Source of the DNA: Candidatus Aenigmatarchaeota archaeon
GTDB taxonomy: Archaea; Aenigmatarchaeota; Aenigmatarchaeia; CG10238-14; SCSR01
Direction: 5' to 3'
Assembly: GCA_038998335.1 (NCBI GenBank)
Contig: JAVZHQ010000002.1
Coordinates: forward strand, 1-64,000
Length of the DNA: 64,000 nucleotides
Below are positions 10,453-49,734 of this stretch, one piece after another. Made by a program: the position numbers and the translations under genes. The first letter of the stretch is position 1, and each line of letters starts with the position of its first letter. Below the pieces are notes generated by a model. That model saw nothing but the letters and a program-made list of their open reading frames with translations. It did not search any database and was not told the origin of the DNA.

Positions 10453-10569
10453 TTAAACTCACTCTTTACTTCAAAATCTATTATGTTATTTTAAATTATC
10501 TTTTTTATATAAAAGTTGCTAAAATTTAAAAAAAGAAGTTTTAAATACTTGTACTTCATAGAAAAAATT

Positions 10570-10602
10570 ATGAAGCTTGGTGGGCAAGTTCTCAAACTTT
10601 AA
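10570..10602 (+). other. Candidate leader uORF MKLGGQVLKL* upstream of leuS
   Basis: ATG about 30 nt after TTTTAAATA box (10539); 3 Leu codons in 10; function inferred. Confidence 0.35.
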
Positions 10603-10646
10603 GTTTAGACTTCTTCTATTCATTAGCATTATAAAGGAGGTTGTTT

Positions 10647-13340
10647 ATGGTTATTAAATTAACTGCAATAGAGAAAAAATGGCAAAAAGTTTGGGAAAAA
10701 GAAAAAATTTTTGAAGCTAATGTAGATAAACAAAAACCAAAGTTTTTTGTAACTTTTCCTTATCCCTATGTTAATGGTGCTCCTCACGTTGGGGCAGCTT
10801 TTACTGCTTTTAGAGTAGATTCTTACGCTAGGTTCAAAAGAATGCAAGGTTTTAACGTTTTGTATCCGCAAGGTTTTCATGCTACTGGTGAACCCATACT
10901 TGGAGCAATAGAAAGATTAAAACAAAAAGATAAAACACAGGAAGAGACTTTCAAGCTTTACGGAGCAACAAAAAAGGATATAGAAAATTTTATCAAGAAA
11001 GGGGCTGAATTTACTGCAAGATTCTGGATGAAAAGATGGATAGAAGACTTAAAACTTGCTGGCTTTTCTATCGATTGGAGAAGAAGTTTTATAACTGCTG
11101 TAACTCCAACTTATTCTCGCTTTATCGAATGGCAGTATAACACTTTAAGAAAAAAGGGTTATGTAGTTCAAGGCACGCATCCTGTGATTTATTGCCCTAA
11201 ATGTCAAAGCCCAACAGGAGATCATGATAGGTTAGAAGGTGAAGGTGAAAGCCCAATAGACTTTGTTTTGATAAAGTTTAAACTTGATTCTAGGGAAATA
11301 TTGCCTTGTGGTACTTTAAGACCAGAAACAGTTTTTGGAGTAACGAACATTTGGGTTAACCCAAGTATAGAATACGTGAGAGCAAAAGTTGATTCTGAAG
11401 TTTGGATAATAAGTAAAGAAGCAAGCGAAAAATTAAAGGATCAACTTAAAAAAGTTGAAATTTTGGGAAAGATAAAAGGCGAAGAATTAATAGGAAAATA
11501 TGTTGAGAACCCAAAAACAAAAGAAAAGATAATAATTCTGCCAGCAGAATTTGTTGACCCTGATGCTGCTTCAGGAGTAGTTATGTCTGTTCCTTCTCAT
11601 GCTCCTTATGACTGGATTGCTTTGTATGAACTACAAAAAAACCCTGAAAAAATCAAAAAGTATGGGATAGAGGAAGAAGTAAAGAAAATAAAGCCAGTTT
11701 CTATAATAAAAACTCCTGGCTTTGGCGAGCATCCAGCAATAGAAGTTTGCAACAATTTGAAAATAGAAAGTCAGAAAGAAAAAGAAAAACTTGATGAAGC
11801 AACAAGCATAGTTTACAAAAGAGAATTTCACCAAGGTATTCTAAAGGAAAACTGCCAAGAATATTCTGGTTTAAAAGTTTCTGATTGTAAAGAAAGACTT
11901 TCAAAAGAGTTTATTGAAAAGGGAATCGCAGATATAATGTGGGAATCTACAGGAAAAGTTGTTTGTAGGTGTGGAACAAAGAATTATGTAAAAATTTTGG
12001 AAAACCAATGGTTTTTGAAGTATTCAGATTTAGAGTGGAAGAAAAAAGCCTTAGATTGTATAAGAAAAATGAAGTTTTATCCAGAAGAAGTTAGAACGCA
12101 ATTTGAAAAAACTGTTGAATGGCTTAAGGATAAAGCATGCACAAGAAAAGCAGGCTTAGGAACAAACTTACCTTGGGATAAAGAATGGAAGGTTGAAACC
12201 CTTTCGGACAGCACAATCTACATGGCTTATTATACCATAGCAAGAATAATAAACGAGAATAAAATTCCTGCTGAAAAGCTTACTGATGAAGTTTTTGACT
12301 ATGTTTTTCTAGGAAAAGGAAGCTTAGAAGAAATAAGCAAAAATTCTAAACTTGATAAAAAAATCATACAAGAAATGAGGGAAGAATTCGAGTATTTTTA
12401 CCCAGTTGACTTAAGAAATTCAGGAAAAGACTTGGTTCCAAACCATTTAACATTTTACATTTTCCATCATGTTGCAATTTTTGAAGAAAAGCATTGGCCA
12501 AAAGCTATAGGAGTTAATGGTTACGTAAACGTTTTCGGAACAAAGATGAGCAAGTCAAAAGGAAACATAATTCCTTTAAGAAACTTGGTTGAAAAAATTG
12601 GTTCAGATTTAGTGAGAATAAACCTAATAGCTTCAAACGAAGGCCTTAACGATGCTGAATGGAGAGACGAACCCTTAGAAAGCTATAAGGTAAGAATAAA
12701 ATTCTTAGAAGAAATTGTAAAAAATGTAAAGAAGGCAAAGAGAAAAGAAAAGAGAAAAGTGGATCTTTTCTTGAGAAGTAAAGTTCAAGAGCACATAAAA
12801 AATTCCACTCAAGCTTATGAGGAAATGAGGTTTAGGAGTGCGGTACAGCATGCTTTCTTCGATTTTATTAATGATTTAAAATGGTACTTGGAAAGAAACG
12901 GAAAAATAGAAAATTGTAACAAAGAAATTTTGATGGAAGCTTTAGAGAGTATTGTTAAGCTCCTGACTCCTGTTTTACCTCATTTGTGCGAGGAATTCTG
13001 GCACAAGCTTGGTAAAAAAACCCTAATCGTAAAAGAAAAATGGCCAAGTTATGAGGAGAGTAAAGTAGACAAAAAAGCCTTAGAGTTAGAGGAGATATTG
13101 AAGAAAACCATAGAAGATTTAAAGGAAGTTATAAAACTTGCAGGAAAAAAAGAGAATTGTTATTTATACTTAGCTTCTCCCCAGGAATATGAATACTTTA
13201 AGGAAGCTGAAGAATTTATCACAAGGCACTTTGGTTTTAAGAAAACATTTGTTTTTAGAGCTTCTGACGAGAAAAGGTTTGATCCAAAAAACAAAGCAAG
13301 TAGAGCAAAGTACGGAAAACCAGGAATTTACCTTGCTTAA
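10647..13340 (+). CDS. leuS: Leucyl-tRNA synthetase (archaeal type)
   Basis: FPYPYVNGAPHVG (HIGH-like), KMSKS, CP1 TLRPET; GGAGG at 10636 favours ATG 10647. Confidence 0.97.
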   Translation: MVIKLTAIEKKWQKVWEKEKIFEANVDKQKPKFFVTFPYPYVNGAPHVGAAFTAFRVDSYARFKRMQGFNVLYPQGFHATGEPILGAIERLKQKDKTQEETFKLYGATKKDIENFIKKGAEFTARFWMKRWIEDLKLAGFSIDWRRSFITAVTPTYSRFIEWQYNTLRKKGYVVQGTHPVIYCPKCQSPTGDHDRLEGEGESPIDFVLIKFKLDSREILPCGTLRPETVFGVTNIWVNPSIEYVRAKVDSEVWIISKEASEKLKDQLKKVEILGKIKGEELIGKYVENPKTKEKIIILPAEFVDPDAASGVVMSVPSHAPYDWIALYELQKNPEKIKKYGIEEEVKKIKPVSIIKTPGFGEHPAIEVCNNLKIESQKEKEKLDEATSIVYKREFHQGILKENCQEYSGLKVSDCKERLSKEFIEKGIADIMWESTGKVVCRCGTKNYVKILENQWFLKYSDLEWKKKALDCIRKMKFYPEEVRTQFEKTVEWLKDKACTRKAGLGTNLPWDKEWKVETLSDSTIYMAYYTIARIINENKIPAEKLTDEVFDYVFLGKGSLEEISKNSKLDKKIIQEMREEFEYFYPVDLRNSGKDLVPNHLTFYIFHHVAIFEEKHWPKAIGVNGYVNVFGTKMSKSKGNIIPLRNLVEKIGSDLVRINLIASNEGLNDAEWRDEPLESYKVRIKFLEEIVKNVKKAKRKEKRKVDLFLRSKVQEHIKNSTQAYEEMRFRSAVQHAFFDFINDLKWYLERNGKIENCNKEILMEALESIVKLLTPVLPHLCEEFWHKLGKKTLIVKEKWPSYEESKVDKKALELEEILKKTIEDLKEVIKLAGKKENCYLYLASPQEYEYFKEAEEFITRHFGFKKTFVFRASDEKRFDPKNKASRAKYGKPGIYLA

Positions 13341-13341
13341 A

Positions 13342-14127
13342 TTATAAAGCTAAAGAAATTGTTTCTATAAAGGCTGCGATTCCAAGAATTACGATAGAAA
13401 TTAAAAGAAGTTTTAAGCTGTCGAAAACTATTAACCAAAAGTTTTTAGATTTTCTTCTTGTGATTGCGACAGAAATTAGCCCGCCAGCTATCGCTCCTAT
13501 GAAAAAAGCTAAAAATTCTAAGCTACCGTGAGGAAGAAACGGTAAAGCAGCTACCGGTAAAGCTTTTACTCCACCAATACTTTTTGCTAAGGAGCCAATG
13601 GCTGCAGCTAAAACAGAAGCATTCCAGGAAATTATGAATACGGCACCCGCGCCAAAAAGGAAAGAAAGCAAGAAAGATAAAAACATTACTCCTACATTAT
13701 TGAAAAATATTGCTTGGAAGGTGTCAGCAAATGTTGCTTTTCCTCTTATCGCGTTTATTGTGTCTATTTGATCTTTAAAAAGTTTGTAGCCTGTTTCTTC
13801 TGGAAGGAGAACGTAAGTTAAAGATAAAGCAATGACTACGCCTACACAAAAAGCTGCATAAACTTTTAGTATGTCAGCATGTCTTTTTAGAAGAGAGGTA
13901 TCTTTTTCTATCACTTCCTCTTCCTTAGCTTCATGGTATCTTATTAAGTTAAGCATGAAAGGAAGGGAAGCTATAGTAATCAAAAGGTTTGTCATTAAGC
14001 CGATCGAAGATTCAAAAATTATGGAAGCGATAAAGAGGCATGCTAAGGAAATTATTGCTCCGTAGATTATCATTACCAAAGGATTTCTCAAGGCAAGTTT
14101 TAAAGGTACAAGCTTTTCAAGAACCAT
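13342..14127 (-). CDS. SpoIIM-family integral membrane protein
   Basis: Multi-TM; IFFNN...WNAS...LPHGSLEF motif; start taken at MVLEKL. Confidence 0.8.
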   Translation of the reverse strand: MVLEKLVPLKLALRNPLVMIIYGAIISLACLFIASIIFESSIGLMTNLLITIASLPFMLNLIRYHEAKEEEVIEKDTSLLKRHADILKVYAAFCVGVVIALSLTYVLLPEETGYKLFKDQIDTINAIRGKATFADTFQAIFFNNVGVMFLSFLLSFLFGAGAVFIISWNASVLAAAIGSLAKSIGGVKALPVAALPFLPHGSLEFLAFFIGAIAGGLISVAITRRKSKNFWLIVFDSLKLLLISIVILGIAAFIETISLAL

Positions 14128-14168
14128 AATCTCTAAATTTAAATAGGTTAGAAGAAAATAAATTTCTT

Positions 14169-15199: not shown

Positions 15200-15201
15200 A
15201 T

Positions 15202-16974
15202 TTATTCTAGAATCGCTTTTATCCTTCTTATCCCAGCAGCAACCCCTTCTTCTTTTATTATCTTAAACCTTCCTAGCTCTTTTGTATTTTTTACGTGTGG
15301 TCCTCCACAAATTTCAACCGAAAAATTGCCAATAAAATAGACAGAAACTTTTTCCCCATACTTATGCTCAAAAACTGCTTGTGCACCTCTTTTCTTTGCT
15401 TCTTCTACAGTCATCTCTTCCCTCCAAACAGGCAAACCTTTTCTTATTTGTTCGTTAACCAAATCTTCAATCTTTTTAATTTCTTCTTCAGTCAATTTCC
15501 TTTCAAAGTTGAAGTCAAACCTTAATCTTTCAGGAGTAATGTTAGAACCTTTTTGAACTATATCTTTTCTTTTCAAGACTCTTCTTATTGCTTCGTTTAG
15601 CAAATGAGTTGCTGTATGAAGCTTGATAGTTTGTTCAGAAGCATCTATTAGTCCACCTTTAAACTTTTTCTCAGCTCCTTTCCTTGAAATTTGTTTATGT
15701 TTTTCGTATTCTTTCCAAAATCCTTCCTCGTCAACCTCTATTCCTTTTTCTTTCGCGAGCTCTTTTGTCATCTCAAAAGGAAAGCCGAAGCTTTGGAATA
15801 AGAGAAAAGCATCCTTTCCACTTATCATTTTTCCCTTTGCCATTTCCTCAAACTTTTTCAAACCTTTTGAAAGAGTATTCCTAAATTTATTTTCTTCCCT
15901 TCCAAGCTCTTCAAGAATAAAGTTTTCTTTTTCTTGTAAAAGAGGATACCTTTTCTTGTAAATTTCTATAACAACCTTTGCAATCTCGCCCAAAAACCCT
16001 TTCTCTATTCCTAAAATCTTTCCGTACCTAATAGCTCTTCTTATAAGTCTTCTCAAAATATAGCCTCTGTCAACATTGCTAGGCAGAACAGGATTTTCAT
16101 CACCGAGGATAAAAGTGGAAGCTCTCAAATGGTCTGTAACAATTCTTATAGAAATTTCCTGCTTTTCGTCTGGTTTTTCTATCCCAGCAATTTCTTTTAT
16201 CTTTTCGTATATTGGCCTTAAAGTTTCTATTTCATAAACACTTTTTCTCCCTTGCAAAATAGCAACAGTTCTTTCAACTCCCATTCCTGTATCAACATTC
16301 TTTTGTTTCAAAGGTTCAAATTTTCCTTCTTTTGTTTTATTGTATTCCATAAAAACATTGTTCCAAAGCTCGAAGTATTTTCCGCAATTGCATCCAGGTC
16401 TACAATTTTTACTGCAAGCCTTTTTTCCACTATCGTAAAAAATTTCTGTGCATGGACCACAAGGTCCTGTTGAACCGACAGGTCCCCAGAAATTCTCTTC
16501 TCTGGAAAGGAAAAAAATCCTTTCCCTAGGAATTCCCAAGCTTTGCCATATCCTCGCGCTTTCTTCGTCTCTTGGCAAATCTTTGTCACCAGCAAAAACT
16601 GTAACATAGATTCTTTCTTTATCTAAACCGAGCCATTTCTTGCTAGTTAAAAACTCCAAGCTCCATTTTATAGATTCCTCCTTGAAATAATCTCCTAAGG
16701 ACCAGTTCCCAAGCATCTCAAAAAATGTTAGATGAAAAGCGTCACCAACCTTTTCTATATCATCAGTTCTCAAGCATCTTTGAACGTTAACAAGCCTTTT
16801 CCCCAAGGGATGAGGCTGGCCTAAAAGATAAGGAATTAAAGGATGCATGCCTGCAGGAGTAAACAAAACAGTAGGGTCATGCTCAGGAACTAGCGAAACG
16901 TTAGGAATAACTTTATGACCTTTTTCTTCAAAAAATTTTATGTAGAGTTGGATAAGCTTTTCTGAATCTATCAT
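15202..16974 (-). CDS. alaS: Alanyl-tRNA synthetase, short form lacking C-Ala domain
   Basis: LFTPAGM, HLTFFEMLGNWS, GPCGPCTE, VDTGMG, editing HTATH...CGGPH; ends after GIRRIKA. Confidence 0.95.
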   Translation of the reverse strand: MIDSEKLIQLYIKFFEEKGHKVIPNVSLVPEHDPTVLFTPAGMHPLIPYLLGQPHPLGKRLVNVQRCLRTDDIEKVGDAFHLTFFEMLGNWSLGDYFKEESIKWSLEFLTSKKWLGLDKERIYVTVFAGDKDLPRDEESARIWQSLGIPRERIFFLSREENFWGPVGSTGPCGPCTEIFYDSGKKACSKNCRPGCNCGKYFELWNNVFMEYNKTKEGKFEPLKQKNVDTGMGVERTVAILQGRKSVYEIETLRPIYEKIKEIAGIEKPDEKQEISIRIVTDHLRASTFILGDENPVLPSNVDRGYILRRLIRRAIRYGKILGIEKGFLGEIAKVVIEIYKKRYPLLQEKENFILEELGREENKFRNTLSKGLKKFEEMAKGKMISGKDAFLLFQSFGFPFEMTKELAKEKGIEVDEEGFWKEYEKHKQISRKGAEKKFKGGLIDASEQTIKLHTATHLLNEAIRRVLKRKDIVQKGSNITPERLRFDFNFERKLTEEEIKKIEDLVNEQIRKGLPVWREEMTVEEAKKRGAQAVFEHKYGEKVSVYFIGNFSVEICGGPHVKNTKELGRFKIIKEEGVAAGIRRIKAILE

Positions 16975-17010
16975 AATATCACTTTTAAATTTTTACCTTA
17001 AAGAATTTAT

Positions 17011-18637: not shown

Positions 18638-18678
18638 AATCTAAGGGAAACAGTAAAAAATTTTTATAAAATTTTAAC

Positions 18679-21600
18679 TTACTTTGGTGGTAGTTTTTGA
18701 AAAGCTATTTTTATTTCTTTATCTTCAAACTTTAAGACATCTTGGAATTCGCCTTTAAGCTTTCCTAAGGAAACCTTGCTTGCTCCCACTTCTTTCTTAA
18801 GTTTTTTAGAATAACTTTTAATAACTTCCAAAGTTTTTTCATCACTTTCTAAGGTTAGAGCAATTCTTTCCTCAACTTTAAAGCCATGTTTCTTCCTCAT
18901 CTCCTGTATTTTTCTTGTTAACTCTTTCAGCAAAGCTTCTTCCATAAGCTTTTCATCAAGCTTAGGGTTAACAAAAACTTTCCCGAAATCAAAGCTTGCT
19001 TCACAATAACCTTTTGGTTCTTCCTCTGCTATTTTAACAGTCTTTGAGTTGCAAATAAAAGCTAGAATTTTTTCCAGCCTTTTAAGTGCAGATAAAACTT
19101 TTTCTTCTTTTGAGAAAACTAAAACTTCAGAAACAGGCCATCTCAACTTAATCCTTGCTTTTTGCCTTGCAGCACTACAAGCCTCAAAGATTTTTTTCGC
19201 AACTTCCATCTCTTCTTCAAGTTTTTTATCTATAAGTTTTTTGTTTGCTTTTGGCCAAAGGCAAAGATGAACAGATTCTTCCCCTCCTTTTAAAGGTTTA
19301 ACTATTTCTTGATAAACTTCTTCTGCGAAGAAAGGAACGAAAGGAGCAAGAAGCTTGGCAAGATTTTCTGTTATAGTTAGCAAAGTGAAGAAAGCTGCCT
19401 TCTTATCCTTTCCCTTATACTCAGGCCAGACCCTATCTCTTATCAACTTAATGTACCATCGTGAAAAATCGTTTATTATAAAATCAACTATTTCTTGCGC
19501 TGCTTTGAAAGAGTGATAATTCCAAAAGTTTTTCTCACAACTTTCTATCAGAGAATTAAGTCTTGAGATTATCCACTTATCTTCTTCCTCCAGTTTTCTC
19601 ACTTTTTCATAACTTTTCACGTAAGTCTTAACAAAGTTGAAAACGTTTTTTACTATCATAAAAGATTTTGCTATTTCCTCAACATCTTGCCATTTGAAGT
19701 AATAATCTTCCCAAGGTGGAGAAAGCAAGTAATATAGCCTTAAAACATCCCTTCCATACTTTTCTATAACCTCTTCAGTTGTTACTATGTTTCCTATACT
19801 TTTAGACATTTTTTGGCCATGCACATCTAAAACAAAACCATGGAACAAAACACTCTTGAAAGAAGCTTTACCAAAAGTCATTAAGCTTGTTATCATCAAA
19901 GAATTCCACCAGCCTCTAATCTGATCAGGCCCTTCAAGGATAAAATCAGCTGGAAACATTTTCTCAAAAGGTTCTTTTTTCTCTGGATAACCTAAGGAAG
20001 CCCAAGGAGCTACCCCAGAATCGAACCAAACATCCAGCACGTCAGAAACTCTTCTCATCTTTTTCCCACATTTTTCACAATCCAAAAGAATTTCGTCTAT
20101 ATAAGGCTTGTGCAAATCCTCTGGAACATAAGGTAATTCTTTCCTTGAGCCTACAACTCTAATGTTTTCACAATTCTCACAAACCCATATTGGTAGAGGA
20201 ATTCCCCAGTACCTTTGCCTTGAGATTGGCCAATCTCCCAGACTTTCTAACCAATTTCTAAACCTTTGTTTTGCCCATTCAGGAACCCATTTTATTTTCT
20301 CATTTTCTTTCAAAAGCTTTTCTCTTATAGCAGTAACTTTAAAGAACCACTGAGGAACCGAAATTAAGAGTAAAGGAGATTCACATCTCCAGCAAACCGG
20401 ATAATCGTGCTGGATCGTTTCCTCGTGAAGAAGTAAACCTTTTTCTCTAAGTTCCTGAATTATTAATTTATCCGCATCTTTAACAAACATCCCAGAATAT
20501 TTCCCACAACTCTCGTCAAAAGTTCCATCTATTTTCACAGGAGAAACTATGGGTAAACCTGTCTCTAAACCTACTTTATAATCTTCCTCTCCATGACCTG
20601 GAGCTGTATGAACCAAACCTGTACCTTCTTCCAGACTAACAAACTGCTCAGAAAGGACAACCCTATGAGCATTCTTCAGATTTTGCTGAAACTTAAACTC
20701 CTCAAGAAAGGGATGTTCATACCTTAAGTTTTCCATATCCTTTCCACTTCTTACGTCCAGGATTTCGTATTTTTCTATGCCAACCTTTCTCATTACACTT
20801 TCTAACAACTGCTTAGCCAAAATCAGAATTTCACCGTTAATTTTAACTCTTACATATTCACCCTTTGGGTTAGCCATTATCCCTGTATTTGCTGGCAACG
20901 TCCATGGCGTAGTAGTAAAACAAACCAAAAATAAGTTGGGGTCTTCTTTTGTTCTAAACTTTACATAAATAGCAGGATCTCTAATCTTTGTGTATTCTAT
21001 CTCATTATAAGCAACTACCGTTTCACAATTATGCGTAATAAAACCGTTTACGATGAAGTTATGAGTTCCTCTAACGTTTAAGTCGGCTACTTCTTTTAGA
21101 CCACTAAACTCTATCTTATCGATTTTCTCCCATATTAATCCGTTTTTAATTCCATTATTTTTAACGTAAATTTCAAATTTTGGTAAAGATTCTCTGTTTA
21201 GTTTTTTTCTAAGTTTTGTTTTCAAGTAAGAAAGTACATAAGAAGAAATTTCTTCCCTTTTTTTGCAATAGGAGTATCCAATACTCTCTAAAAATTTTAC
21301 TGTGTTCAAAATACTACAACTTATTCTTCCTGTAACTATAGCTTTTTCTTTTCCGTTAACATTTTTGTAAGTCTTTTTAAAAGGCCTTATCATTACACCA
21401 AGCTCTTTAAGCAACTTATAAATAGATTTCACAAACTTTACAGCAGAAGCTTCTAAATTTCTGTTTTTTTCTACTCTAAAAATCAACTCCTTAAAATATT
21501 TTTCTGTTTCTCTTAAACTTGGTTTACTTAACTCAGCACCAAAATATCCACGCAAAAACTCTGTCTTAAAAGCTTTTAATTCCTTCTTTTTTAATACATT

Positions 21601-22926
21601 TGGAATGTCGAAATCGATTTCCCACTTTTTACCGGAAGGCATACCTAAGGTCAACAATAAAATCCCAAAGGAAGAGGAATAACAGTACATTTCGATACTC
21701 TGGCCTTTTACTTCTTTCTCATTTATTTTGGATTTCTTTTCTCTGCTTTTAATTTTACTTGATTTAAAACCTAATTTCTTCAGGTCTTTTTTAATCTTCT
21801 TGAGATCGTCTTTTTCTTCGGCCGAGAAAAACACTATAATCTCTGGGAAGTTTCTTTTTTTCTTTTTTCTTATTATCAGAGAGCCGTCCCCAAACGAATA
21901 TCCTAAAATTCTAAAAAGAATTCTAGTTTTTTCATCCTTCTCATACAACGGTAAAAGCCTTTTACATTCAAGCTCGTGTAAAACCCTCTTTATAATACCA
22001 TTCACTCTCTTAGAATTTCCATACTTTTCGTTAAGTTTCTCAATAGTCTTTATAACTTCTTTTTTTGTTAAAATAACTTTATTTGAGTTAGTGTTTTCTT
22101 TAAAAACTGGAAGATGGACTACTGCAACTTCATCACCCACTTTCAAATGCTTAAGTTCTCTCCAACCACTCTTGGTTAAAAATGGGTGATCTAAGGTTGC
22201 CTCGATGTTTAAACCACTTTGAGTTGTAACTCTAAAGGTCTTGTCCTTTACTTCTAGATAACCATCTATACACGACTCCTTAAAATCAAAATTTTTAAGG
22301 TCTAAAGTTACGACTTTTTCATTTTCCCAACAGTTTTTAAGTTCATCCATACTTTTCCAACTATAATTAGTAAAAACTATAGAATCTTTCGTAATACACC
22401 TTGGACAAACATGAACAGGATAGCTCCCTTTGTATAGTAAACCTTTTTCAAAAGCTTTCTTAAACGTAAACCATGCCCCTTCTATATAATCGTTAGTCAA
22501 AGTTAAGTAAGGATTTTCCCAGTCCATCCAGACTCCTAAATTTTTGAACTGGTTGCTCATTGTATCTATAAATTGAGTTGCAAATTTCCTGCATTCTTTT
22601 ATGAAATTCTCAACGCCAAACTTTTCTATATCCTTCTTTGATTTAAAACCAAGCTGCTTTTCAACTTTGTTCTCTATTGGTACGCCATGGCAATCATAGC
22701 CTGGCTGGTCCCAAGTATTAAAACCTTGCATCCTGAAAAACCTTAAAAAGCAATCTTTTATAACTTTGTTAAATGCTGTGCCAACATGGATTGAACCAGT
22801 AGCATAAGGGGGCCCGTCCAAGAAAAAGAATTTTTTACCTTCTTTCCTCATTTCCTTAAGCTTTTCATAAACCTTTTTCTCTTCCCAAAATTTTAGTATT
22901 TGCTCCTCTTTTTCTGAATCTTTCAT
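18679..22926 (-). CDS. ileS: Isoleucyl-tRNA synthetase with intein
   Basis: DGPPYATGSIHVG, DWPISRQRYWG, KMSKS; 457-aa insertion in the CPR/C zinc knuckle. Confidence 0.97.
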   Translation of the reverse strand: MKDSEKEEQILKFWEEKKVYEKLKEMRKEGKKFFFLDGPPYATGSIHVGTAFNKVIKDCFLRFFRMQGFNTWDQPGYDCHGVPIENKVEKQLGFKSKKDIEKFGVENFIKECRKFATQFIDTMSNQFKNLGVWMDWENPYLTLTNDYIEGAWFTFKKAFEKGLLYKGSYPVHVCPRCITKDSIVFTNYSWKSMDELKNCWENEKVVTLDLKNFDFKESCIDGYLEVKDKTFRVTTQSGLNIEATLDHPFLTKSGWRELKHLKVGDEVAVVHLPVFKENTNSNKVILTKKEVIKTIEKLNEKYGNSKRVNGIIKRVLHELECKRLLPLYEKDEKTRILFRILGYSFGDGSLIIRKKKKRNFPEIIVFFSAEEKDDLKKIKKDLKKLGFKSSKIKSREKKSKINEKEVKGQSIEMYCYSSSFGILLLTLGMPSGKKWEIDFDIPNVLKKKELKAFKTEFLRGYFGAELSKPSLRETEKYFKELIFRVEKNRNLEASAVKFVKSIYKLLKELGVMIRPFKKTYKNVNGKEKAIVTGRISCSILNTVKFLESIGYSYCKKREEISSYVLSYLKTKLRKKLNRESLPKFEIYVKNNGIKNGLIWEKIDKIEFSGLKEVADLNVRGTHNFIVNGFITHNCETVVAYNEIEYTKIRDPAIYVKFRTKEDPNLFLVCFTTTPWTLPANTGIMANPKGEYVRVKINGEILILAKQLLESVMRKVGIEKYEILDVRSGKDMENLRYEHPFLEEFKFQQNLKNAHRVVLSEQFVSLEEGTGLVHTAPGHGEEDYKVGLETGLPIVSPVKIDGTFDESCGKYSGMFVKDADKLIIQELREKGLLLHEETIQHDYPVCWRCESPLLLISVPQWFFKVTAIREKLLKENEKIKWVPEWAKQRFRNWLESLGDWPISRQRYWGIPLPIWVCENCENIRVVGSRKELPYVPEDLHKPYIDEILLDCEKCGKKMRRVSDVLDVWFDSGVAPWASLGYPEKKEPFEKMFPADFILEGPDQIRGWWNSLMITSLMTFGKASFKSVLFHGFVLDVHGQKMSKSIGNIVTTEEVIEKYGRDVLRLYYLLSPPWEDYYFKWQDVEEIAKSFMIVKNVFNFVKTYVKSYEKVRKLEEEDKWIISRLNSLIESCEKNFWNYHSFKAAQEIVDFIINDFSRWYIKLIRDRVWPEYKGKDKKAAFFTLLTITENLAKLLAPFVPFFAEEVYQEIVKPLKGGEESVHLCLWPKANKKLIDKKLEEEMEVAKKIFEACSAARQKARIKLRWPVSEVLVFSKEEKVLSALKRLEKILAFICNSKTVKIAEEEPKGYCEASFDFGKVFVNPKLDEKLMEEALLKELTRKIQEMRKKHGFKVEERIALTLESDEKTLEVIKSYSKKLKKEVGASKVSLGKLKGEFQDVLKFEDKEIKIAFQKLPPK
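21028..22398 (-). mobile_element. Intein with LAGLIDADG homing endonuclease domain
   Basis: Begins CITKDS (aa 177), block B ATLDHPF, LAGLIDADG-like LGYSFGDG and FLRGYFGAE, ends NFIVNGFITHN before extein Cys. Confidence 0.95.
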
Positions 22927-22965
22927 AAATTCACCTTAGAAATAGGAATAAATAAAAATTTAGAA

Positions 22966-22995
22966 TCAGATCCGCTTATCACTCACTTGCCTCAC
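22966..22995 (-). other. Candidate leader uORF (V)RQ(V/M)SDKRI* upstream of ileS
   Basis: GTG about 30 nt after a TTTTATA box; last sense codon ATC (Ile). Confidence 0.35.
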
Positions 22996-23027
22996 CTTAA
23001 AAAATTATAAAAGCAAGTATAAAAAAC

Positions 23028-26760: not shown

Positions 26761-26840
26761 GAGTAAAATAAAATCGTTAAAAAATAAATATTTTCGGTCC
26801 CACCTCAAACTATTTAAAAGCTTTTTCTAATTAATTTTTA

Positions 26841-26879
26841 GTGAGCAAGATGGGAGGTAAGCGCCTTCACGAAAAGTGA
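26841..26879 (+). other. Candidate leader uORF (V)SKMGGKRLHEK* upstream of AbrB-tRNA-His-hisS
   Basis: GTG about 28 nt after TTTAAAA; contains CAC (His); stop overlaps AAAGTGA/TCACTTT hairpin. Confidence 0.35.
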
Positions 26880-26890
26880 TTTAGTTCACT

Positions 26891-27136
26891 TTGCTTAGTG
26901 CTGTTTCTAAAGTTGACTCGAAGGGAAGAGTTTCTATTCCTATTAAGTTAAGAGCAAAGTTAAAGATACTTGAAGGCTGTAGGGTGAAAATTCTAGTCAA
27001 AAAAGGTAGACTGATTCTTATTCCTGAAAGATGGCCAGAATGGTGTAAGGGTAGCACAGGAGTCTGTGGAACTCCTGGAGCGGGTTCGAATCCCGCTTCT
27101 GGCCCAAAAGAATTAAAAAAGAATTCACTCTTATAA
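26891..27136 (+). CDS. AbrB/MazE/SpoVT-family DNA-binding protein overlapping tRNA-His
   Basis: KVDSKGRVSIPIKLRAKLKILEG is an AbrB swapped-hairpin signature; no stop before the tRNA. Confidence 0.75.
   Translation: MLSAVSKVDSKGRVSIPIKLRAKLKILEGCRVKILVKKGRLILIPERWPEWCKGSTGVCGTPGAGSNPASGPKELKKNSLL
27033..27104 (+). tRNA. tRNA-His(GTG), G-1 genomically encoded
   Basis: G-GCCAGAA...TTCTGGC-C; anticodon arm GGAGT-CTGTGGA-ACTCC; T loop GGTTCGAATCC. Confidence 0.95.
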
Positions 27137-27150: not shown

Positions 27151-28455
27151 ATGGAACTCAAGCCTTTAAAAGGGACAAGAGATTTTTTGCCGGAAGAAAT
27201 GATAATAAGACAGAAAATTTTGGAAAAAGTTAAGAATACTTTTGAATTGTTTGGTTTTCAGCCTCTAGAAACTCCTGCTCTCGAATCTTGGGAAATACTT
27301 TCGGCAAAAGGGGCTGGTGGAGAAGAGATTTTAAAAGAAACTTACAACTTTGAGGATTTAGGGAAAAGAAGAGTTGGGTTAAGATATGATTTAACAGTTC
27401 CTCTAGCAAGAGTTGTTGCTTCAAACCCGAACTTACCATTACCTTTTAAAAGGTATCAAATTCAAAACGTTTGGCGCTACGGAGATGTTTCAAAAGGCAG
27501 GTTAAGGGAATTTTTGCAAGCAGATATTGATATAGTAGGCTCAGAAAGTATGCTTGCAGATGCTGAAGTAATTGCCTGTGCGGTTTCTTGTTTGAATTCC
27601 TTAGGATTCAAAAATTTTCTTGTAAGAATAAATAACAGGAAAATTTTGAGCGCTTTAGTTAAATTTGTTAGAATAGAAGAAGAAAAAGCTTTGGAAGTTT
27701 TTAGAAGTATAGACAAGCTTGAAAAGATTGGTGAAGAAAAAGTAAAGAAAGAACTGGAAGAAAAGGGAATTTCTCAAGACTCTATCAAAAAAATTTTTGA
27801 TTTTATAAAAATAGATGAAACTCCGGAAAAAGTTTTTGAAAAGATTAAAGACTTAAGCTTTGACGAAGGGAAAGAAGGAATAGAAGAATTGAAAGAAATC
27901 GTTTTTTATCTTAAGGAAATGGGAACTAATGCAAAAATTAAAATTGATTTAAGCTTGGCAAGAGGCTTGGATTACTACACTGGCCCTATTTTCGAGATTT
28001 CTGCTGAAAAAGAAATAGGAAGCATAGCCGGAGGAGGAAGGTACGATAAGCTAATAGGAATATTCGCAAAGAAGGAAATTCCAGCAACAGGAATTAGCTT
28101 GGGGATTGAAAGAATAATTGAAGTTATGAAAAAAAGGAAAATGGTTGAAGAAAAAAAGTGTAAAACTAAAGTTTTTGTAGCAACAATCAACAAAGAAATT
28201 CTCAAAAAATCTTTACCTATAATCCAAAAGTTAAGAGAAAATGGAATAGAAACTGACTTTGACTTGAGGGAAAGAAGTTTAACTAGACAATTAGAGTATG
28301 CAAACTCTTTGGGAATTCCTTTTGTCTTGATTTTAGGAGAAAAAGAGCTTAAAGAGAAAAAGTTCAGGCTAAGGTTTATGGAAAAAAAGATTGAAAAAGA
28401 GCTTAGCTTAGATGAAGTGATTAGAATTTTAAAAGAACCTCAAGAAAATTCTTGA
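27151..28455 (+). CDS. hisS: Histidyl-tRNA synthetase
   Basis: KGTRDF, LRYDLTVP, GRLREFLQAD, RGLDYYTG, GGGRYD. Confidence 0.97.
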   Translation: MELKPLKGTRDFLPEEMIIRQKILEKVKNTFELFGFQPLETPALESWEILSAKGAGGEEILKETYNFEDLGKRRVGLRYDLTVPLARVVASNPNLPLPFKRYQIQNVWRYGDVSKGRLREFLQADIDIVGSESMLADAEVIACAVSCLNSLGFKNFLVRINNRKILSALVKFVRIEEEKALEVFRSIDKLEKIGEEKVKKELEEKGISQDSIKKIFDFIKIDETPEKVFEKIKDLSFDEGKEGIEELKEIVFYLKEMGTNAKIKIDLSLARGLDYYTGPIFEISAEKEIGSIAGGGRYDKLIGIFAKKEIPATGISLGIERIIEVMKKRKMVEEKKCKTKVFVATINKEILKKSLPIIQKLRENGIETDFDLRERSLTRQLEYANSLGIPFVLILGEKELKEKKFRLRFMEKKIEKELSLDEVIRILKEPQENS

Positions 28456-34697: not shown

Positions 34698-34797
34698 GCC
34701 CCTGTAGCTCAGTTTGGACAGAGCAGCGGCTTAAGTCTAGTTTAATGAGCTGCCGAACCTAAGCCGATGGTCGAGGGTTCAAATCCCTCCAGGGGCA
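34698..34797 (+). tRNA. tRNA-Arg(CCT) with 25-nt intron at position 33/34 (34733-34757)
   Basis: GCCCCTG...CAGGGGCA; intron removal gives CGGC-TTCCTAA-GCCG; bulge-helix-bulge with TTA and AAC bulges around CGGC/GCCG. Confidence 0.9.
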
Positions 34798-43248: not shown

Positions 43249-43325
43249 ACAATATAAGTTTAGTTGGTTAAAATAAATTTTTATAAAAGTTATTTTTTTA
43301 TAAGACAAATTCATTATAGATACAA

Positions 43326-44400: not shown

Positions 44401-44455
44401 AATTCACTATAAGGAGTAAAATATATTTTTATTTTAACAGCTATAAAACTAAACT

Positions 44456-45958: not shown

Positions 45959-48330
45959 CTTACTGCTATAACCTTAGTTGGTTCGTCTTTTTCCTTATCC
46001 CTTTCTAACCTGTAAAGATAGCCGGTAACAGCATCTTCAAGCCTTTCTTCGTGAGAAATAAGAAAGACTTGATCAACAAGTTCGCCAACTCTTGTTTTAA
46101 GAGTCAAAGCTAAATCTTCCACAGCCTTTGCATCAAGGTTGTGTGTGGGTTCGTCTAAAACAAGCCACCTTAGTTGAGGAGCTAAAACTCTAGCAAAAGC
46201 AATTCTCAAAGCCAAACAAGCTACACTTCTCTCGCCACCAGAAGCAATTCCATCTGCATTTATAAATCTTCCAGTTCTGTCTTTAAGTTGAAGAACATAA
46301 TCTCCTTCTTCTATGTTGAGTTTAATTTCTATGTAATCTCTATAAGGATAAAGTGTAGGCCAAAGTCTATTCATCTCATAATTTACTGCCTCAACAAACT
46401 CTTTTCTCATTTCTTCTTGAGTAAATTTTAAAGCTAACTCAAAAATCTTTAAGTCGTTTATGATTTTTTCAAGCTTTTTAACCTCTTCCATTTCTTTAAC
46501 TACAAAATTAAATTCATTTTCATATTCTTTCAACCTTTCTTCTTTTTCTTTTTCCAATTTTTCTAATCCAAGAATTTTTTCTTCCAATTCTTTTTCTTTC
46601 ACAAAAACTTCTCTTAATTCTTTTTCTTTTTCTTCAAGATTTCTTCCAGAAATCTTTTCTTCCACTTCAGAAATTTTAGTTTCTAAACGCTTAGCTTCTT
46701 TCATAAGTTCGTTTAATCTCTCTTTTCTTTCTTCATAATCTTTAAACCTATACCTTATAATTTCTAATTCTTGCAGAATTTCTCTAAGTTGTTTTACAGA
46801 TTTTTCTGTTTCTTCGATTTCAACCTTGAGCTTAGAATAAACTTTTTCGTTTTCTTCAATTTCTTTATTCAAATCTCTTGAATCCGTTAATAAGCTATTA
46901 TATTCCTTCTTTTTTTCTTCCAAATCTTTTATCTCTTCTAGCATTTTTTCAACTTTTCTTTTAATTTTCTCGATTTCTTCAAGCTCTTTCTCGTTTGCAG
47001 TTTTATTTTTTATCGCTTCCTCTAGTTTCTTCCTCAGTTCTTCTATTTTTCTTTCTCTTTCTCTTACGAGCAAATCCTTTTTTTCTTGAGTTAAAACAGA
47101 ATCACAAACTGGGCATTTTCCTCCAGCCGAAGAAAGTTTTTCCACACTTTCTTCCAAATCTTTTAACTTACTTTCAAACTCTTTAGCTTCTTCCAAGTAT
47201 TTTTCATTTAACGATTTTTTATTCCTGATTTTTTCTTCTAACTCTTCTAAAGAAAAACCTAAGCTTTCAAGCTCTTCTTTGACTTTGAGTTTATTTTCAA
47301 CCTCTACTCCAAGTTTCTCCATTTCTTTTTTTAGAAGATTGATTTTTGCCTTAGCTTCTGAAAGAGAATTCCCAATCTTTTCGTAATAGCTTCTCTTTTC
47401 CCTTAAACTTTCTTCTAATTCCTTCAACTTTATTTTCATTTTTTCGATTTCTTTTTCTACTTCTTCCTTACTTCTGCCTTTCAAAATTTCTTCCAAACTC
47501 TTAAGATTCTTTGTAGTTTCATCTACTGCGCTGTTTATTCCTTTTTCTTCTTTTCTCAAGTTTTCTAGAAGTTTTTCTAACTCTCCTAATTCTTTAACTT
47601 CCTCTTCCAAACTTTTTTTCTTGCTAAGCACTTCTTCAAAACTCTTTTTTAGTTCTTTTTTTTCAGAAGAAATCTGAATCAAAGAAGATTTTATTTCAGA
47701 AATGCTTTTCTTTAAATTTTCTAAATCTATTGACTCTATTATTTTCTGTTTCTCACTCTTTCTATCCAAAAGCCTGTTTGTTAGAGTTTTTGTGTTTGCT
47801 CTTGCTTCCTCAAACTTGTTTATCATCAAAAGTTCGTCTATCTTTTTCATTCTTTGGCCTTTTGGAATTGTTAGGAAATAGTCTAAAGCATTTTGTTCAG
47901 AGTAAATTGCTCTTGTAAAAAGGTCATAATCAACTTTCAAAATTTTTTCTATAGTTTCTGTTACTCTTTGTGAGTTTGGTCCTTCCAAAAGTTTTCCTTC
48001 TTCCCTTAATTCAGAATAAGTTGTTCCTTTTCCTTTCTCGATAATTCTTTTTACAGAGTATGTTTTACCGTTAGCTTCAAAGAAAACTTCTACTTCGGCT
48101 TTATTTTTTTCTGTAGGTTTGTTCATTATAATTTCATCAAGTTTAATTTTTTTACTCTGTAAATCAGGGAAATTTCCAAAAAGAGCGAAGCATATAGCAT
48201 TTAAAACAGAAGTTTTCCCGCTTCCCATTCCCCCGAACAAAGCGTTAGTTCCTTTTGAGAACCTAAACTCAGACTCTAGATGAGAACGCCAATTCTTAAG
48301 CCTAACTTTTGTTATCATTATTTCACCCAT
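45955..48330 (-). CDS. rad50: Rad50 ATPase
   Basis: GGMGSGKTS, coiled coil with CPVC hook, SGGE, LDEPT. Confidence 0.95.
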   Translation of the reverse strand: MGEIMITKVRLKNWRSHLESEFRFSKGTNALFGGMGSGKTSVLNAICFALFGNFPDLQSKKIKLDEIIMNKPTEKNKAEVEVFFEANGKTYSVKRIIEKGKGTTYSELREEGKLLEGPNSQRVTETIEKILKVDYDLFTRAIYSEQNALDYFLTIPKGQRMKKIDELLMINKFEEARANTKTLTNRLLDRKSEKQKIIESIDLENLKKSISEIKSSLIQISSEKKELKKSFEEVLSKKKSLEEEVKELGELEKLLENLRKEEKGINSAVDETTKNLKSLEEILKGRSKEEVEKEIEKMKIKLKELEESLREKRSYYEKIGNSLSEAKAKINLLKKEMEKLGVEVENKLKVKEELESLGFSLEELEEKIRNKKSLNEKYLEEAKEFESKLKDLEESVEKLSSAGGKCPVCDSVLTQEKKDLLVRERERKIEELRKKLEEAIKNKTANEKELEEIEKIKRKVEKMLEEIKDLEEKKKEYNSLLTDSRDLNKEIEENEKVYSKLKVEIEETEKSVKQLREILQELEIIRYRFKDYEERKERLNELMKEAKRLETKISEVEEKISGRNLEEKEKELREVFVKEKELEEKILGLEKLEKEKEERLKEYENEFNFVVKEMEEVKKLEKIINDLKIFELALKFTQEEMRKEFVEAVNYEMNRLWPTLYPYRDYIEIKLNIEEGDYVLQLKDRTGRFINADGIASGGERSVACLALRIAFARVLAPQLRWLVLDEPTHNLDAKAVEDLALTLKTRVGELVDQVFLISHEERLEDAVTGYLYRLERDKEKDEPTKVIAVS

Positions 48331-49592
48331 TTTTCTAAACCTTTTTGTCTTTCTAAAGATTTTTTCAAATCTTTTTCTAAAGTTAATTGTTCACCAATCA
48401 AAATGTTAAAAGCTTTTTCTATTTCGCCTTCACTTAAAATACTAAAAAATTTTTCAAAGTCATAGGTAAAGCTGAACCCAAGCTCTTCTAAATTCTTTCT
48501 TAAAATGTTTAGGCCAATTTCTTCTACAGAAAGCCTTTGTTCTCTTAAATCTCTTAAAAACTCTATTTTTCTCTCTACTTCTTTAGTTTCTAGCTCTTTG
48601 ACAAGAATTATTACAGCTCTTTCAGAAAACTTTTTCTCTATTTCTCTTAACTCTTGGTCTGAAATTTCTGTTTCTTTTCCTATAACTTTTATTCTAATTA
48701 AAGGTTTTTTCAGAAAATTTTTATCGAGAATTTTTTTAATCAAACTTTCAATTTTTTCTCTTCCCCCACATTCCAAATTAATTTCCTCATAGAAAAACCT
48801 TCTAATTTTTTCAAGCTTTTCAAAAGTAACTTTAATTTTTTCATCAATTTCAATTTTGAAAAAACCTTTTTCACTCAAAGCCTCATTTTTTTCATATTGT
48901 GTAACTATCGTACTTCCTGGAAAAAGTAAAAGAGTGTTATTTACTTTTTCCTGAGCAGAAGAGTGAACGTGCCCATCTATTATAACATCAAAACCTTTTG
49001 GAAGATTAGAAACACTTAAGCTTGGTGGTTCAAGGGGAGAATAAACATAAGGAGAAATGTTTTGATGTAAAAGCAAGATGTTAAAACAATTTTCTAAAGG
49101 TTTTGGATTCCATAGGTTTAAAACCTCTTTTGCAAACCTTTCGGGCACACCAGACATTCCATGAATCGCTACCCTTTTTCCTTCTTTTTCAAAAACTATT
49201 GTATGCTTATGTAAATGAATTAGAATTCCAGCATTTTCCAGAACTTCTACAGCATTTATCTCATCTTTTCCTTTTCTTTCATGAGTACCGTGAATTGCTA
49301 CTATTGGTAAATGAGATAAAGTCCTTTTTGAAATATCTTTCAATTCTTTTGAGGAAGAGATAAGTTTTAAGCCAGAAGACTCTTTGAGTAAAGGTTTAGT
49401 TAAAATTTTCATGGCTCTTGCCCAAGTGTCTGGCCTTGGTATTCTTGTATCAAAGATATCGCCAGCTATTAAAATTAAGTCACAATCTAGAGCTTTTTCT
49501 ATAGCTTCTTCTGCATTTTCAAAACTATCGTTTTCAAGCTCTGAGTTGTAGGCAAAGCCAAAATGAAAATCTGAAAGCACTGCTATTTTCAT
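48318..49592 (-). CDS. mre11: Mre11 nuclease
   Basis: SDFHFG, AGDIFD, HGTHE, GHVH; overlaps rad50 start. Confidence 0.93.
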   Translation of the reverse strand: MKIAVLSDFHFGFAYNSELENDSFENAEEAIEKALDCDLILIAGDIFDTRIPRPDTWARAMKILTKPLLKESSGLKLISSSKELKDISKRTLSHLPIVAIHGTHERKGKDEINAVEVLENAGILIHLHKHTIVFEKEGKRVAIHGMSGVPERFAKEVLNLWNPKPLENCFNILLLHQNISPYVYSPLEPPSLSVSNLPKGFDVIIDGHVHSSAQEKVNNTLLLFPGSTIVTQYEKNEALSEKGFFKIEIDEKIKVTFEKLEKIRRFFYEEINLECGGREKIESLIKKILDKNFLKKPLIRIKVIGKETEISDQELREIEKKFSERAVIILVKELETKEVERKIEFLRDLREQRLSVEEIGLNILRKNLEELGFSFTYDFEKFFSILSEGEIEKAFNILIGEQLTLEKDLKKSLERQKGLEKWVK

Positions 49593-49660
49593 TTTTATCT
49601 ATTTAACTAATCTTTGCTAACTTATAAAAGTTTTTAAGTATTGCAATTAAATATTTAAAA

Positions 49661-49693
49661 GTGGAGCAAATGGGCGATTCACTTCCAAGCTGA
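49661..49693 (+). other. Candidate leader uORF (V)EQMGDSLPS* upstream of proS
   Basis: GTG about 28 nt after TTTTAAG box; contains CCA (Pro). Confidence 0.35.
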
Positions 49694-49734
49694 AAAACTA
49701 ATTCTTTTATCCACAAATTTTATTAGGTGGGAAA

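Follow-up and report, generated by a model that had tools for sequence, protein, structure and literature searches.

Leader ORFs at synthetase loci of the window

The stretch of DNA analysed here, referred to as the window, comprises the first 64 kb (64,000 nucleotides) of contig 2 (JAVZHQ010000002.1) of a Candidatus Aenigmatarchaeota archaeon, whose assembly amounts to 1.01 Mb with 33% G+C in nine contigs. It carries the leucyl-, isoleucyl-, histidyl- and prolyl-tRNA synthetase genes (leuS, ileS, hisS and proS), and upstream of each lies a short leader with an upstream open reading frame (uORF) that contains a codon for the amino acid of the synthetase encoded downstream (Table 1). This paper concerns these leaders, their counterparts at other aminoacyl-tRNA synthetase (aaRS) genes and relatives, and the way in which they might sense charged tRNA.

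The leaders that a previous sequence-only reading had listed before ileS, the His locus, proS and leuS are all present at these coordinates, each behind the TATA-like box that it had described. The boxes are predicted promoters, and the uORFs start about 26-27 nt after the box centre, a distance that fits an archaeal promoter. The reported lack of such a leader at alaS was likewise borne out, as none was found in its upstream region and no cassette (the conserved five-codon unit described below) within 1300 nt. Two points required revision. The His leader exists as written, but it precedes an AbrB-like open reading frame (ORF) and tRNA-His, and not hisS directly. The pattern GTG-nnn-nnn-RTG, which had been taken as common to three of the leaders, is better read as a Shine-Dalgarno (SD)-like GTGA or GGTG followed by the start codon of the uORF.

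Table 1. Features of the four leader loci and of alaS in the window. Peptides are given up to their stop codon; all boxes are predictions, P-site and sensed codons are named after the proposed mechanism, bridges are putative, and L numbers are labels of fetched loci.
Feature	Position	Strand	Remarks
TATA-like box TTTAAATA, leuS leader	10540..10547	+	predicted; centre ~26 nt before uORF ATG
Leu leader uORF, 0 frame, MKLGGQVLKL	10570..10602	+	conserved in L063, L064, L066, L069, L088
Leu cassette	10579..10593	+	SD-like GGTGGG, spacer CAA, P-site GTT, sensed CTC
Leu +1 bridge FSNFKFRLLLFISIIKEVVYGY	10589..10657	+	open from the shift site; ends 11 nt inside leuS
leuS, leucyl-tRNA synthetase	10647..13340	+	PF00133/PF13603/PF08264; GGAGG before ATG 10647
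TATA-like box TTTTTTATA, ileS leader	23018..23026	-	predicted; second box 23005-23012
Ile leader uORF, 0 frame, VRQVSDKRI	22966..22995	-	alternatively MSDKRI from GTG 22986
Ile cassette	22969..22983	-	SD-like AGTGAT, spacer AAG, P-site CGG, sensed ATC
Ile +1 bridge GSDSKFLFIPISKVNL	22923..22973	-	terminal TGA overlaps ileS ATG (ATGA)
ileS, isoleucyl-tRNA synthetase with intein	18679..22926	-	PF00133 427 bits, PF14890 70 bits
TATA-like box TATTTAAAA, His leader	26811..26819	+	predicted
His leader uORF, 0 frame, VSKMGGKRLHEK	26841..26879	+	orthologs L092, L093, L095, L100, L105, L110, L117, L118
His cassette 1, GGT AAG CGC CTT CAC	26856..26870	+	SD-like GGAGGT/GGTAAG, P-site CTT, sensed CAC
+1 frame of His cassette 1, FTKSDLVHFA	26866..26898	+	contains cassette 2
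His cassette 2, AGTGAT TTA GTT CAC	26875..26889	+	in the +1 frame of cassette 1
AbrB/SpoVT-type ORF, +1 frame of cassette 2	26885..27136	+	PF04014 35.2 bits
tRNA-His (GUG)	27034..27105	+	Watson-Crick reader of sensed CAC
hisS, histidyl-tRNA synthetase	27151..28455	+	PF13393 168.7 bits
Candidate TATA-like box TTTTAAGTA, proS leader	49632..49640	+	uncertain; further A/T boxes close by
Pro leader uORF, 0 frame, VEQMGDSLPS	49661..49693	+	orthologs L002, L003, L005, L006, L011, L027, L013, L015, L016
Pro cassette	49673..49687	+	SD-like GGCGAT, spacer TCA, P-site CTT, sensed CCA
Pro +1 bridge FQAEKLILLSTNFIRWESG	49683..49742	+	ends 8 nt inside proS
proS, archaeal-type prolyl-tRNA synthetase	49735..51180	+	PF00587, PF09180, PF03129; GTG start after GGTGG
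alaS, catalytic part	15202..16974	-	negative example; PF01411 473.6 bits

The leaders carry the codon of the downstream synthetase

For comparison, up to 30 orthologous loci per gene were sampled from 40 genomes of the same genus, family or order, spanning 3 to 11 genera per family; the families sampled included Ile, Val, Leu, Pro, His, Cys and Thr as well as argS, serS-like and class II Asp-like genes. The loci of all families are kin rather than independent, and every count given here therefore overstates the number of independent events. The window's own genome is designated G000, and its contigs C1 and C2.

Nine family searches mapped 23 aaRS-related genes in G000. Leaders occur at 7 of 21 aaRS loci, with the cognate codon in each, and are thus not a general feature of aaRS genes. 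Most aaRS starts in the upstream regions of G000 follow an A/T-rich box at about 20-30 nt and have no leader, and a search of the 1300 nt that precede valS, metS, gluS, two class Ib genes, pheS, alaS, the class I lysS and two class IIb genes likewise gave no leader. The fifth leader, MGGSLCC, was detected by a short-ORF scan before the tRNA-Cys/cysS locus. The Asn leader, (V)KTLGGRQNFEARR, precedes an AbrB-like ORF, an AsnRS-like gene, tRNA-Asn and a class II synthetase, while the Thr leader lies 285 nt before thrS.

The earlier observation that the leaders carry the cognate codon withstood a comparison with shuffled labels: when the five labels Ile, Leu, Pro, His and Cys were permuted over the G000 peptides, only 1 of 120 permutations placed the cognate residue in every peptide. 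A scan of 30 loci per family in the fixed register G-[DEGNSAV]-x-[RLFVI]-X yielded a near-diagonal matrix of residue by family (Table 2). The Thr and Asn leaders, which were found later, obey the same register, with CAA, GAA or AAA followed by ACA in the former and CAA followed by AAC in the latter. A generic scan blind to the cognate residue gave 83 matches in the fetched loci; the A-site codon was cognate to the target gene in 51 of them, and 7 further matches turned out to be the leaders of neighbouring ileS, hisS or cys genes.

Table 2. Residue at position X of the fixed register (n = 30 loci per family) and examples of leader peptides from relatives, given up to the stop codon (dots, residues omitted).
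Family	X cognate	X other	Leader peptides
Ile	8	1	MKGDTRI, MGDCRISF, MGVDRIVF, MSDYRITTSI
Val (leader absent in G000)	4	0	MKGDHRVQA, MSGESRVLV
Leu	7	2	MGERLLL, MKGESVLSC
Pro	9	2	MGELFPE, MGERVPQN
His	5	L 4, S 3, N 1, W 1 (mostly register slips)	MGERLHGW.., MKGDILHKE..
Cys	12	6 singletons	MGDSLCFKL, MGDRVCY
Thr			MKGELQTF, MQGEHQTLF

Conservation of the leaders extends well past the genus. Among 80 public ileS loci, 25 contained the Ile cassette, and in 7 of these 25 it took the form of a second variant, ..RRDCQIL.. with CAA at the P site, the records concerned bearing the label Micrarchaeota, Iainarchaeum or another. The ileS leader occurs under the labels of three different phyla, and the nearest records are labelled Candidatus Aenigmatarchaeota. 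The cassette was not detected in those of the 80 loci labelled Woese-, Pace- or Nanoarchaeota. Among the relatives, no leader was found by eye in the 150 nt upstream of argS (0/30 loci), nor in the 600 nt upstream of serS-like genes (0/30) or, one spurious match aside, of class II '2_b' (Asp-like) genes (0/29).

Several candidates were set aside. The nucleotide motif GTG[AG]{1,2}GCAA[AG] proved uninformative as a marker, with 52 matches in the genome that were mostly coding, and several matches of the generic scan were ordinary gene starts with an SD of their own. Short-ORF matches inside tRNA genes (L013, L018) or at contig ends (L062) were discarded. The peptide MGEFIRI (C1:46689) was a false positive inside a gene broken by in-frame stops, which we take by eye to resemble fructose-1,6-bisphosphate aldolase/phosphatase; the in-frame stops of this gene (C1:46.55-47.73 kb) lie near its 5' end.

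A conserved cassette within a probably translated leader

The cassette consists of five codons: two that form an SD-like element (GGTGAN, which encodes Gly-Asp/Glu, or AGTGAT, GGCGAT and the like), one free codon, a codon of the form XYY, and the cognate codon. Its anatomy was examined in a curated set of 38 leaders that lie directly before an aaRS gene and were picked on features of the 0 frame only. The set excludes L032 (identical to L031), the Pro leaders L013, L015 and L016, in which a tRNA lies between leader and proS, all Cys leaders and all His leaders but L117 (an ORF and a tRNA intervene), and the Thr leaders L202, L203 and that of G000 (intervening ORF).

The codon preceding the cognate one, which would occupy the ribosomal P site while the cognate codon is in the A site, has identical second and third bases in 38/38 leaders (CGG 20, CTT 7, GTT 6, TTT 1, CAA 4). 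Its identity follows the family: CGG in Ile and Val leaders, CTT, GTT or TTT in Leu, Pro, His and Cys leaders, and CAA in Thr and Asn leaders; the His leader L105 has TTC at this place. The SD-like hexamer starts with [AG]GTG in 29/38 leaders and with GGCG or GGAG in most others, and it is always separated from the P-site codon by one codon of 3 nt. The resulting distance of 4 nt between GGTGA and XYY is also the commonest SD-to-start spacing at the aaRS starts listed. After the cognate codon the uORF stops within 0-6 further codons (32/32 curated leaders). The cognate codons are mostly minor ones: CTC makes up 4% of Leu, ATC 10% of Ile and CAC 24% of His codons, and CGG, the P-site codon of the Ile leaders, is the rarest Arg codon at 1%. 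They also match the anticodons of adjoining tRNA genes, namely GUG for His, GCA for Cys and, in relatives, UGG for Pro.

The frame of the leader is maintained while its length is not. The pair CGG ATY is present in 17/30 ileS loci, and in 17/17 of these it is in frame with a start 3-10 codons upstream and a stop 1-6 codons downstream, at differing lengths. The cognate codon varies synonymously among relatives (ATC/ATT, CTC/CTA), and in the Pro leader L011 a 1-nt deletion is accompanied by a switched start codon, by which the Pro codon stays in frame. Evidence for a structured RNA was not obtained. A cmscan of the whole window against Rfam at gathering thresholds returned three tRNAs only and no T-box; folding of the four window leaders was no better than that of shuffles (z -0.10, +1.46, -1.11 and +1.46), and no terminator or antiterminator hairpins were predicted in them. 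The conservation in frame, combined with the lack of structure and of Rfam matches, argues for a translated element and not a T-box-like RNA.

These observations bear on the suggestion that a ribosome- or tRNA-sensing leader system, akin to bacterial attenuators or T-boxes, serves archaeal aaRS genes. Its first half gains from the comparison: a ribosome-based, amino-acid-specific leader system at archaeal aaRS genes, with a conserved position of the cognate codon in eight families, is well supported by the sequences. The two analogies fail, that with the T-box on the missing Rfam match (tRNAs apart) and the lack of excess folding stability, and that with the classical attenuator on the missing hairpins and the usually single cognate codon.

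A second conserved feature follows the stop of the 0 frame. A U-rich element, approximately TTTTATTTAC and then TYCTATTTCTAA, shows conservation of its nucleotide sequence across the Ile and Val leaders, also when these come from different genera (window 22930-22960 on the minus strand; L040, L048, L052, L164, L165, L173, L188), and it is also present before valS genes that have no uORF (L159, L164, L165, L188). It may act in termination, in pausing or in binding. A reading of the T-rich element as a second TATA box is possible but was not adopted, because its distance to the aaRS start, as judged by eye, differs among loci by some 30-60 nt and a conserved SD lies downstream.

The +1 frame leads to the synthetase start

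The +1 frame of 36 of the 38 leaders meets no stop until it is at most 12 nt from the aaRS start or has passed it; 12.1 of 38 would be expected if the bases in between were shuffled. Of the two exceptions, L043 is due to a wrong start codon chosen by the script, and L063 is real. The +1 frame stops mostly between -11 and +17 nt of the aaRS start: at +4, as an ATGA or GTGA overlap, in 13 leaders, at +8 in 7, at +10/+11 in 6 and at -4 in 4. In three leaders (L036, L042, L117) it is fused in frame to the synthetase. The stop of the 0 frame, by comparison, lies 36-127 nt upstream of the aaRS start. For the Thr leaders it was predicted, before being computed, that the +1 frame ends in a TGA over the thrS start, and this was found in 4/4. 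The +1 frame has no canonical start upstream of the cognate codon in the proS leader of the window, in L027, L042 and L117, and in the Cys and His cases.

Regulators and tRNAs in the +1 frame

The His loci have a tandem pair of cassettes. The +1 frame of the first contains the second, which has a CAC of its own and in turn has the AbrB-like ORF in its +1 frame; this arrangement is found in 8/8 loci that have cassette 1 and the AbrB-like ORF. In the window, the AbrB-like ORF has a possible start of its own at TTG 26891. It contains no stop before tRNA-His, reads through the tRNA gene and ends 14 nt before hisS.

The Cys loci of relatives are built along similar lines. Here the +1 frame encodes an ArsR-type winged helix-turn-helix protein (PF01022, 23.5 and 24.6 bits; cut-off 22), the conserved sequence of which begins at the shift site, and no ATG, GTG or TTG occurs before codon 45 in L130, 79 in L131 and 17 in L139. 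In 6/9 loci the +1 frame passes through tRNA-Cys over 58-112 codons to between -9 and +1 nt of cysS. At L136, L140 and L149, the +1 frame of the cassette opens a different ORF, which by eye is presumably cysteine synthase-like. In G000 the place of the ArsR-type ORF between leader and tRNA-Cys is taken by a LAGLIDADG-type ORF (PF14528, 54.5 bits; C1:370930-371550, L121:331-951), and the +1 remnant has only 12 codons. At the Thr locus of G000 the +1 frame forms an ORF of 86 codons (C2:98354-98611, L124:55-312) that had no Pfam match and is conserved in L202 and L203 from the shift site onwards.

Coding frames that run through a cognate tRNA gene and stop just before the synthetase are a recurrent feature: besides window 26885-27136, they are present at His loci L093, L095, L100 and L105, Cys loci L130, L131, L143, L151 and L152, and Pro loci L013, L015 and L016. 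At five loci the frame continues unchanged across tRNA-Cys. Excision of the tRNA from the transcript would deprive the upstream ORF of its stop codon. In G000, a cognate tRNA stands directly upstream of the synthetase for Asn (C1:165.5-166.7 kb, minus strand), Cys (C1:371.55-371.66 kb) and His, and the tRNA-Cys apparently bears an intron. A tRNA-Val(UAC) at C2:78995-79066 lies upstream of the non-cognate class I lysS.

Two look-alikes of the leaders occur elsewhere in G000, MGVHFR (C2:80140-80160) and MGVNFR (C1:220528-220548), each with a rare CGG or CGC Arg codon just before the stop. The former ends 4 nt before a winged-helix-like ORF (80165-80620), which is in its +1 frame, and the latter lies 49 nt before tRNA-Ile(GAU). 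Both share TTCACTTCC with the proS leader, in a different frame. The argS gene itself has no leader.

A proposed mechanism

We favour, with some reserve, the view that each leader senses the charged cognate tRNA, and does so through programmed +1 frameshifting at a hungry codon. The promoter about 26 nt upstream would give an mRNA that begins with the SD-like GTGA or GGTG and the short uORF. Within the uORF, GGTGAN would act as a second SD-like element, 4 nt before XYY (CGG, CTT, GTT, TTT, TCC, CAA or GAA). With XYY in the P site, the A site would hold the single cognate codon, which usually is a minor one, ends in C or A and is read by Watson-Crick pairing. When the charged cognate tRNA is plentiful, the ribosome would continue and stop 0-6 codons on, far short of the synthetase. 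When it is scarce, the ribosome would wait, be held by the SD-like pairing and slip by +1; the tRNA on XYY might retain its middle base pair in the process.

The +1 frame would lead the shifted ribosome to the next start, where it would end at or near the aaRS start (often as ATGA) or continue as a fusion with the synthetase. Alternatively, it would translate a DNA-binding protein, AbrB-like at the His and Asn loci and an ArsR-type winged helix-turn-helix at the Cys loci, and continue through the tRNA to the aaRS gene. Shifted ribosomes would thereby raise expression of the synthetase and probably also of the tRNA and the regulator. Termination and reinitiation might be coupled at the overlapping start, the transcript might be kept translated and so be spared termination or degradation, both of these might apply, or the regulator protein might be made. 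Stop/start overlaps are described as coupling translation in archaea (PMC6728339), and policing of coupling by FttA is put forward as a hypothesis in PMC11616081. The tRNA genes inside the gated units argue that part of the effect would be exerted at the RNA level. Since the codon to be decoded slowly would be the cognate one, a sense codon, the frequency of slippage would mirror the supply of charged tRNA, and with it the activity of the downstream synthetase, and would close a negative feedback loop.

Slightly less firmly, we lean towards a more general picture, in which one modular cassette family has been re-tuned to at least eight amino acids in small-genome (DPANN-type) archaea and would gate bridges, startless transcription factors, embedded tRNAs and the synthetase, with two gates in series at His.

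Weighing the alternatives

The conserved anatomy of the cassette and the statistics of the frames are direct observations. The occurrence of frameshifting, its dependence on charging and the direction of the effect are deduced from sequence alone, and this is the first of several points that weigh against the proposed frameshift sensor. In 28/32 curated leaders the +1 frame does have a canonical start upstream of the cognate codon, often the GTG within GGTGA, and the bridge ORF could be initiated independently there. The aaRS genes carry a good SD of their own, and the bridge is thus not needed for their translation. The +2 frame reaches the aaRS start in 15/38 leaders, mostly from close relatives, and in L063 the first +1 codon is a stop. 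By our own reasoning, re-pairing after a +1 slip would be good for NUU before C or U and poor for CGG-A, the configuration of the Ile leaders. Since the 3' end of the 16S rRNA was not found in the nine contigs, pairing with the anti-SD is deduced from the SD motifs of the genes. Finally, the U-rich element is neither required nor explained by the frameshift model.

The alternative that fares best against these facts, and that we nevertheless regard as unlikely, is a leader-peptide sensor that stalls without frameshifting. A ribosome waiting at the cognate codon would decide what becomes of the transcript: it might cover the U/C-rich stretch that directly follows the uORF stop and so prevent termination at oligo-U or dependent on FttA/aCPSF1, much as tnaC counters Rho, or it might protect the 5' end or make the downstream SD accessible. 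The +1 ORF would be a separately started uORF coupled to the aaRS start. The start codon in 28/32 leaders suits such an ORF, and the cognate codon conserved 0-6 codons before the stop suits a stall. The position of the U-rich element, 10-20 nt after the cognate codon in Ile and Val leaders, and its presence before valS without a uORF also speak for stalling, and the tRNA genes within the controlled units (His, Cys; Pro in relatives) favour control at the RNA level. A quality control of coupling by FttA has been hypothesised (PMC11616081). However, stalling leaves unexplained why the P-site codon is XYY in 38/38 leaders, why the SD-like element lies exactly 4 nt before it, and why a second complete His cassette sits in the +1 frame of the first in 8/8 loci. 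It accounts neither for the startless ArsR-type ORF of L130, L131 and L139 nor for the lack of a +1 start at proS of the window, and hairpins were not predicted.

A very improbable alternative is an RNA-level element, in which the GC-rich island binds a protein or, like a T-box specifier, an uncharged tRNA, the reading frames being incidental. The sequence GGGnGnTTCACTTCC, common to the proS leader and the two non-aaRS leaders of G000 (C2:80140, C1:220528) in another frame, would fit such an element, as would the match of the cognate codons to the anticodons of adjacent tRNA genes; we also count in its favour that UCACUUCC presumably resembles an anti-SD sequence. It is hard to reconcile with start and stop codons that keep frame in 17/17 Ile leaders despite length changes, with the deletion in L011 compensated by a start switch, with the synonymous ATC/ATT and CTC/CTA variation, and with Rfam matches limited to tRNAs and folding energies like those of shuffles. 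Moreover, whereas a T-box contacts a tRNA at both ends, leaders of 30-40 nt are far too short for this.

That the ORFs arose by chance or are non-regulatory, as promoter-proximal leftovers or trans-acting micropeptides, is scarcely credible, for although the frames were first picked post hoc, the peptides have only 6-15 residues and 14/21 aaRS loci of G000 lack a leader, the near-diagonal matrix, the conservation over many genera (for ileS in three phylum labels) and the +1 frame, open in 36/38 leaders with 12.1 expected, all speak against it, and a trans-acting peptide would have no need for the neighbouring gene's amino acid at a fixed place.

Comparison with known systems

The closest parallel to the proposed frameshift sensor is bacterial prfB, the gene of release factor 2. 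Both have an internal SD-like element a few nucleotides before the P-site codon, which is slippery in prfB and may be so here, and an early end of the 0 frame, and the P-site codon of prfB, CUU, recurs here among CTT, GTT and TTT. In both, a slow A-site codon would coincide with a low level of the gene's own product or activity, and the shift would raise the decoding factor, giving negative feedback. The slow codon is a stop in prfB, whereas here it would be a sense codon read by charged tRNA. The +1 frame of prfB is the body of the same protein, whereas here it is mostly a bridge to a separate ORF or regulator, with fusions in 3/38. The SD spacing of prfB is unusually short, while the 4 nt of the present leaders is the normal initiation spacing in G000. 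Lastly, prfB is bacterial, and the leaders described here belong to an archaeon and are known from their sequences only.

In the eukaryotic +1 sites of Ty1, EST3, ABP140 and antizyme, the shift takes place at a P-site codon such as CUU or UCC before a codon that is hungry, its tRNA being rare, or otherwise slow, as proposed here. Those sites sense one fixed rare tRNA or polyamines and have neither an SD-like element nor a family tuned to its neighbours.

The bacterial attenuators of trpL, hisL, pheL and pheM resemble the leaders in having an upstream short ORF with the relevant codons, through which the supply of charged tRNA is read as ribosome speed, and pheM controls an aaRS operon (pheST). 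They use runs of codons and alternative hairpins, whereas the leaders usually have a single cognate codon and no predicted hairpins, and the proposed read-out is a change of frame. Incidental frameshifting in pheL is reported in PMC3082878.

The T-box of Gram-positive bacteria shares with the leaders an amino-acid-specific control of aaRS genes in cis through a codon that matches the cognate tRNA, but it is a long structured RNA that binds uncharged tRNA without translation, in contrast to conserved frames without structure. In leaders of the tnaC/Rho and ermC type, a ribosome arrested near the end of the leader ORF changes access to downstream RNA. What tnaC and ermC sense, through the nascent peptide, is free tryptophan or an antibiotic, as opposed to charged tRNA at one codon.

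Novelty and implications

To our knowledge, little has been established about the way in which archaea adjust their synthetases and tRNAs to the availability of amino acids; the T-box and the hairpin attenuator both belong to bacteria. A literature search that left most subscription journals outside its reach found no report of archaeal aaRS leader peptides or of aaRS control by frameshifting. Reading charged tRNA through the speed of a ribosome on a leader ORF and autoregulatory +1 frameshifting are both already known in bacteria; new are their combination, the archaeal host and the modular re-tuning to eight amino acids. In a 2021 review of recoding in archaea (PMC8211752), one -1 case in archaeal cellular genes is given, and archaeal +1 events are merely suggested, for a haloarchaeal virus and for magnesium chelatase.

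If the proposed mechanism holds, the leaders would be the first cis-acting sensor of charged tRNA in archaea. They would also be the first case in which cellular genes of archaea are regulated by +1 frameshifting, and would parallel the autoregulation of RF2 with a sense codon. A compact and portable device of about 40 nt would sense, at the ribosome itself, how far one tRNA is charged and respond by switching the reading frame, which might offer synthetic biology a programmable amino-acid sensor. Annotations would have to be corrected for startless small regulators, for ORFs that run through tRNA genes and for N-terminally extended IleRS and HisRS. The mechanism would also bear on how host-dependent archaea that import amino acids deal with uneven supply.

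Other features of the window

The IleRS of the window has 1415 aa with an intein (PF14890) at residues 184-633, and the IleRS ORFs of relatives have about 960-1000 aa. AlaRS is apparently split into the 590-aa catalytic part in the window and a 230-aa ORF at C1:498.0-498.7 kb that matches the end of PF01411 (model positions 471-552). An ORF of 921 aa at window 59033-61798 has no Pfam match at E <= 0.001, and one of at least 2853 aa (2-8560, minus strand) runs off the start of the window. At window 34698-34797, Rfam matches 100 nt to a tRNA (55.5 bits) that is absent from the ARAGORN predictions and probably contains an intron.

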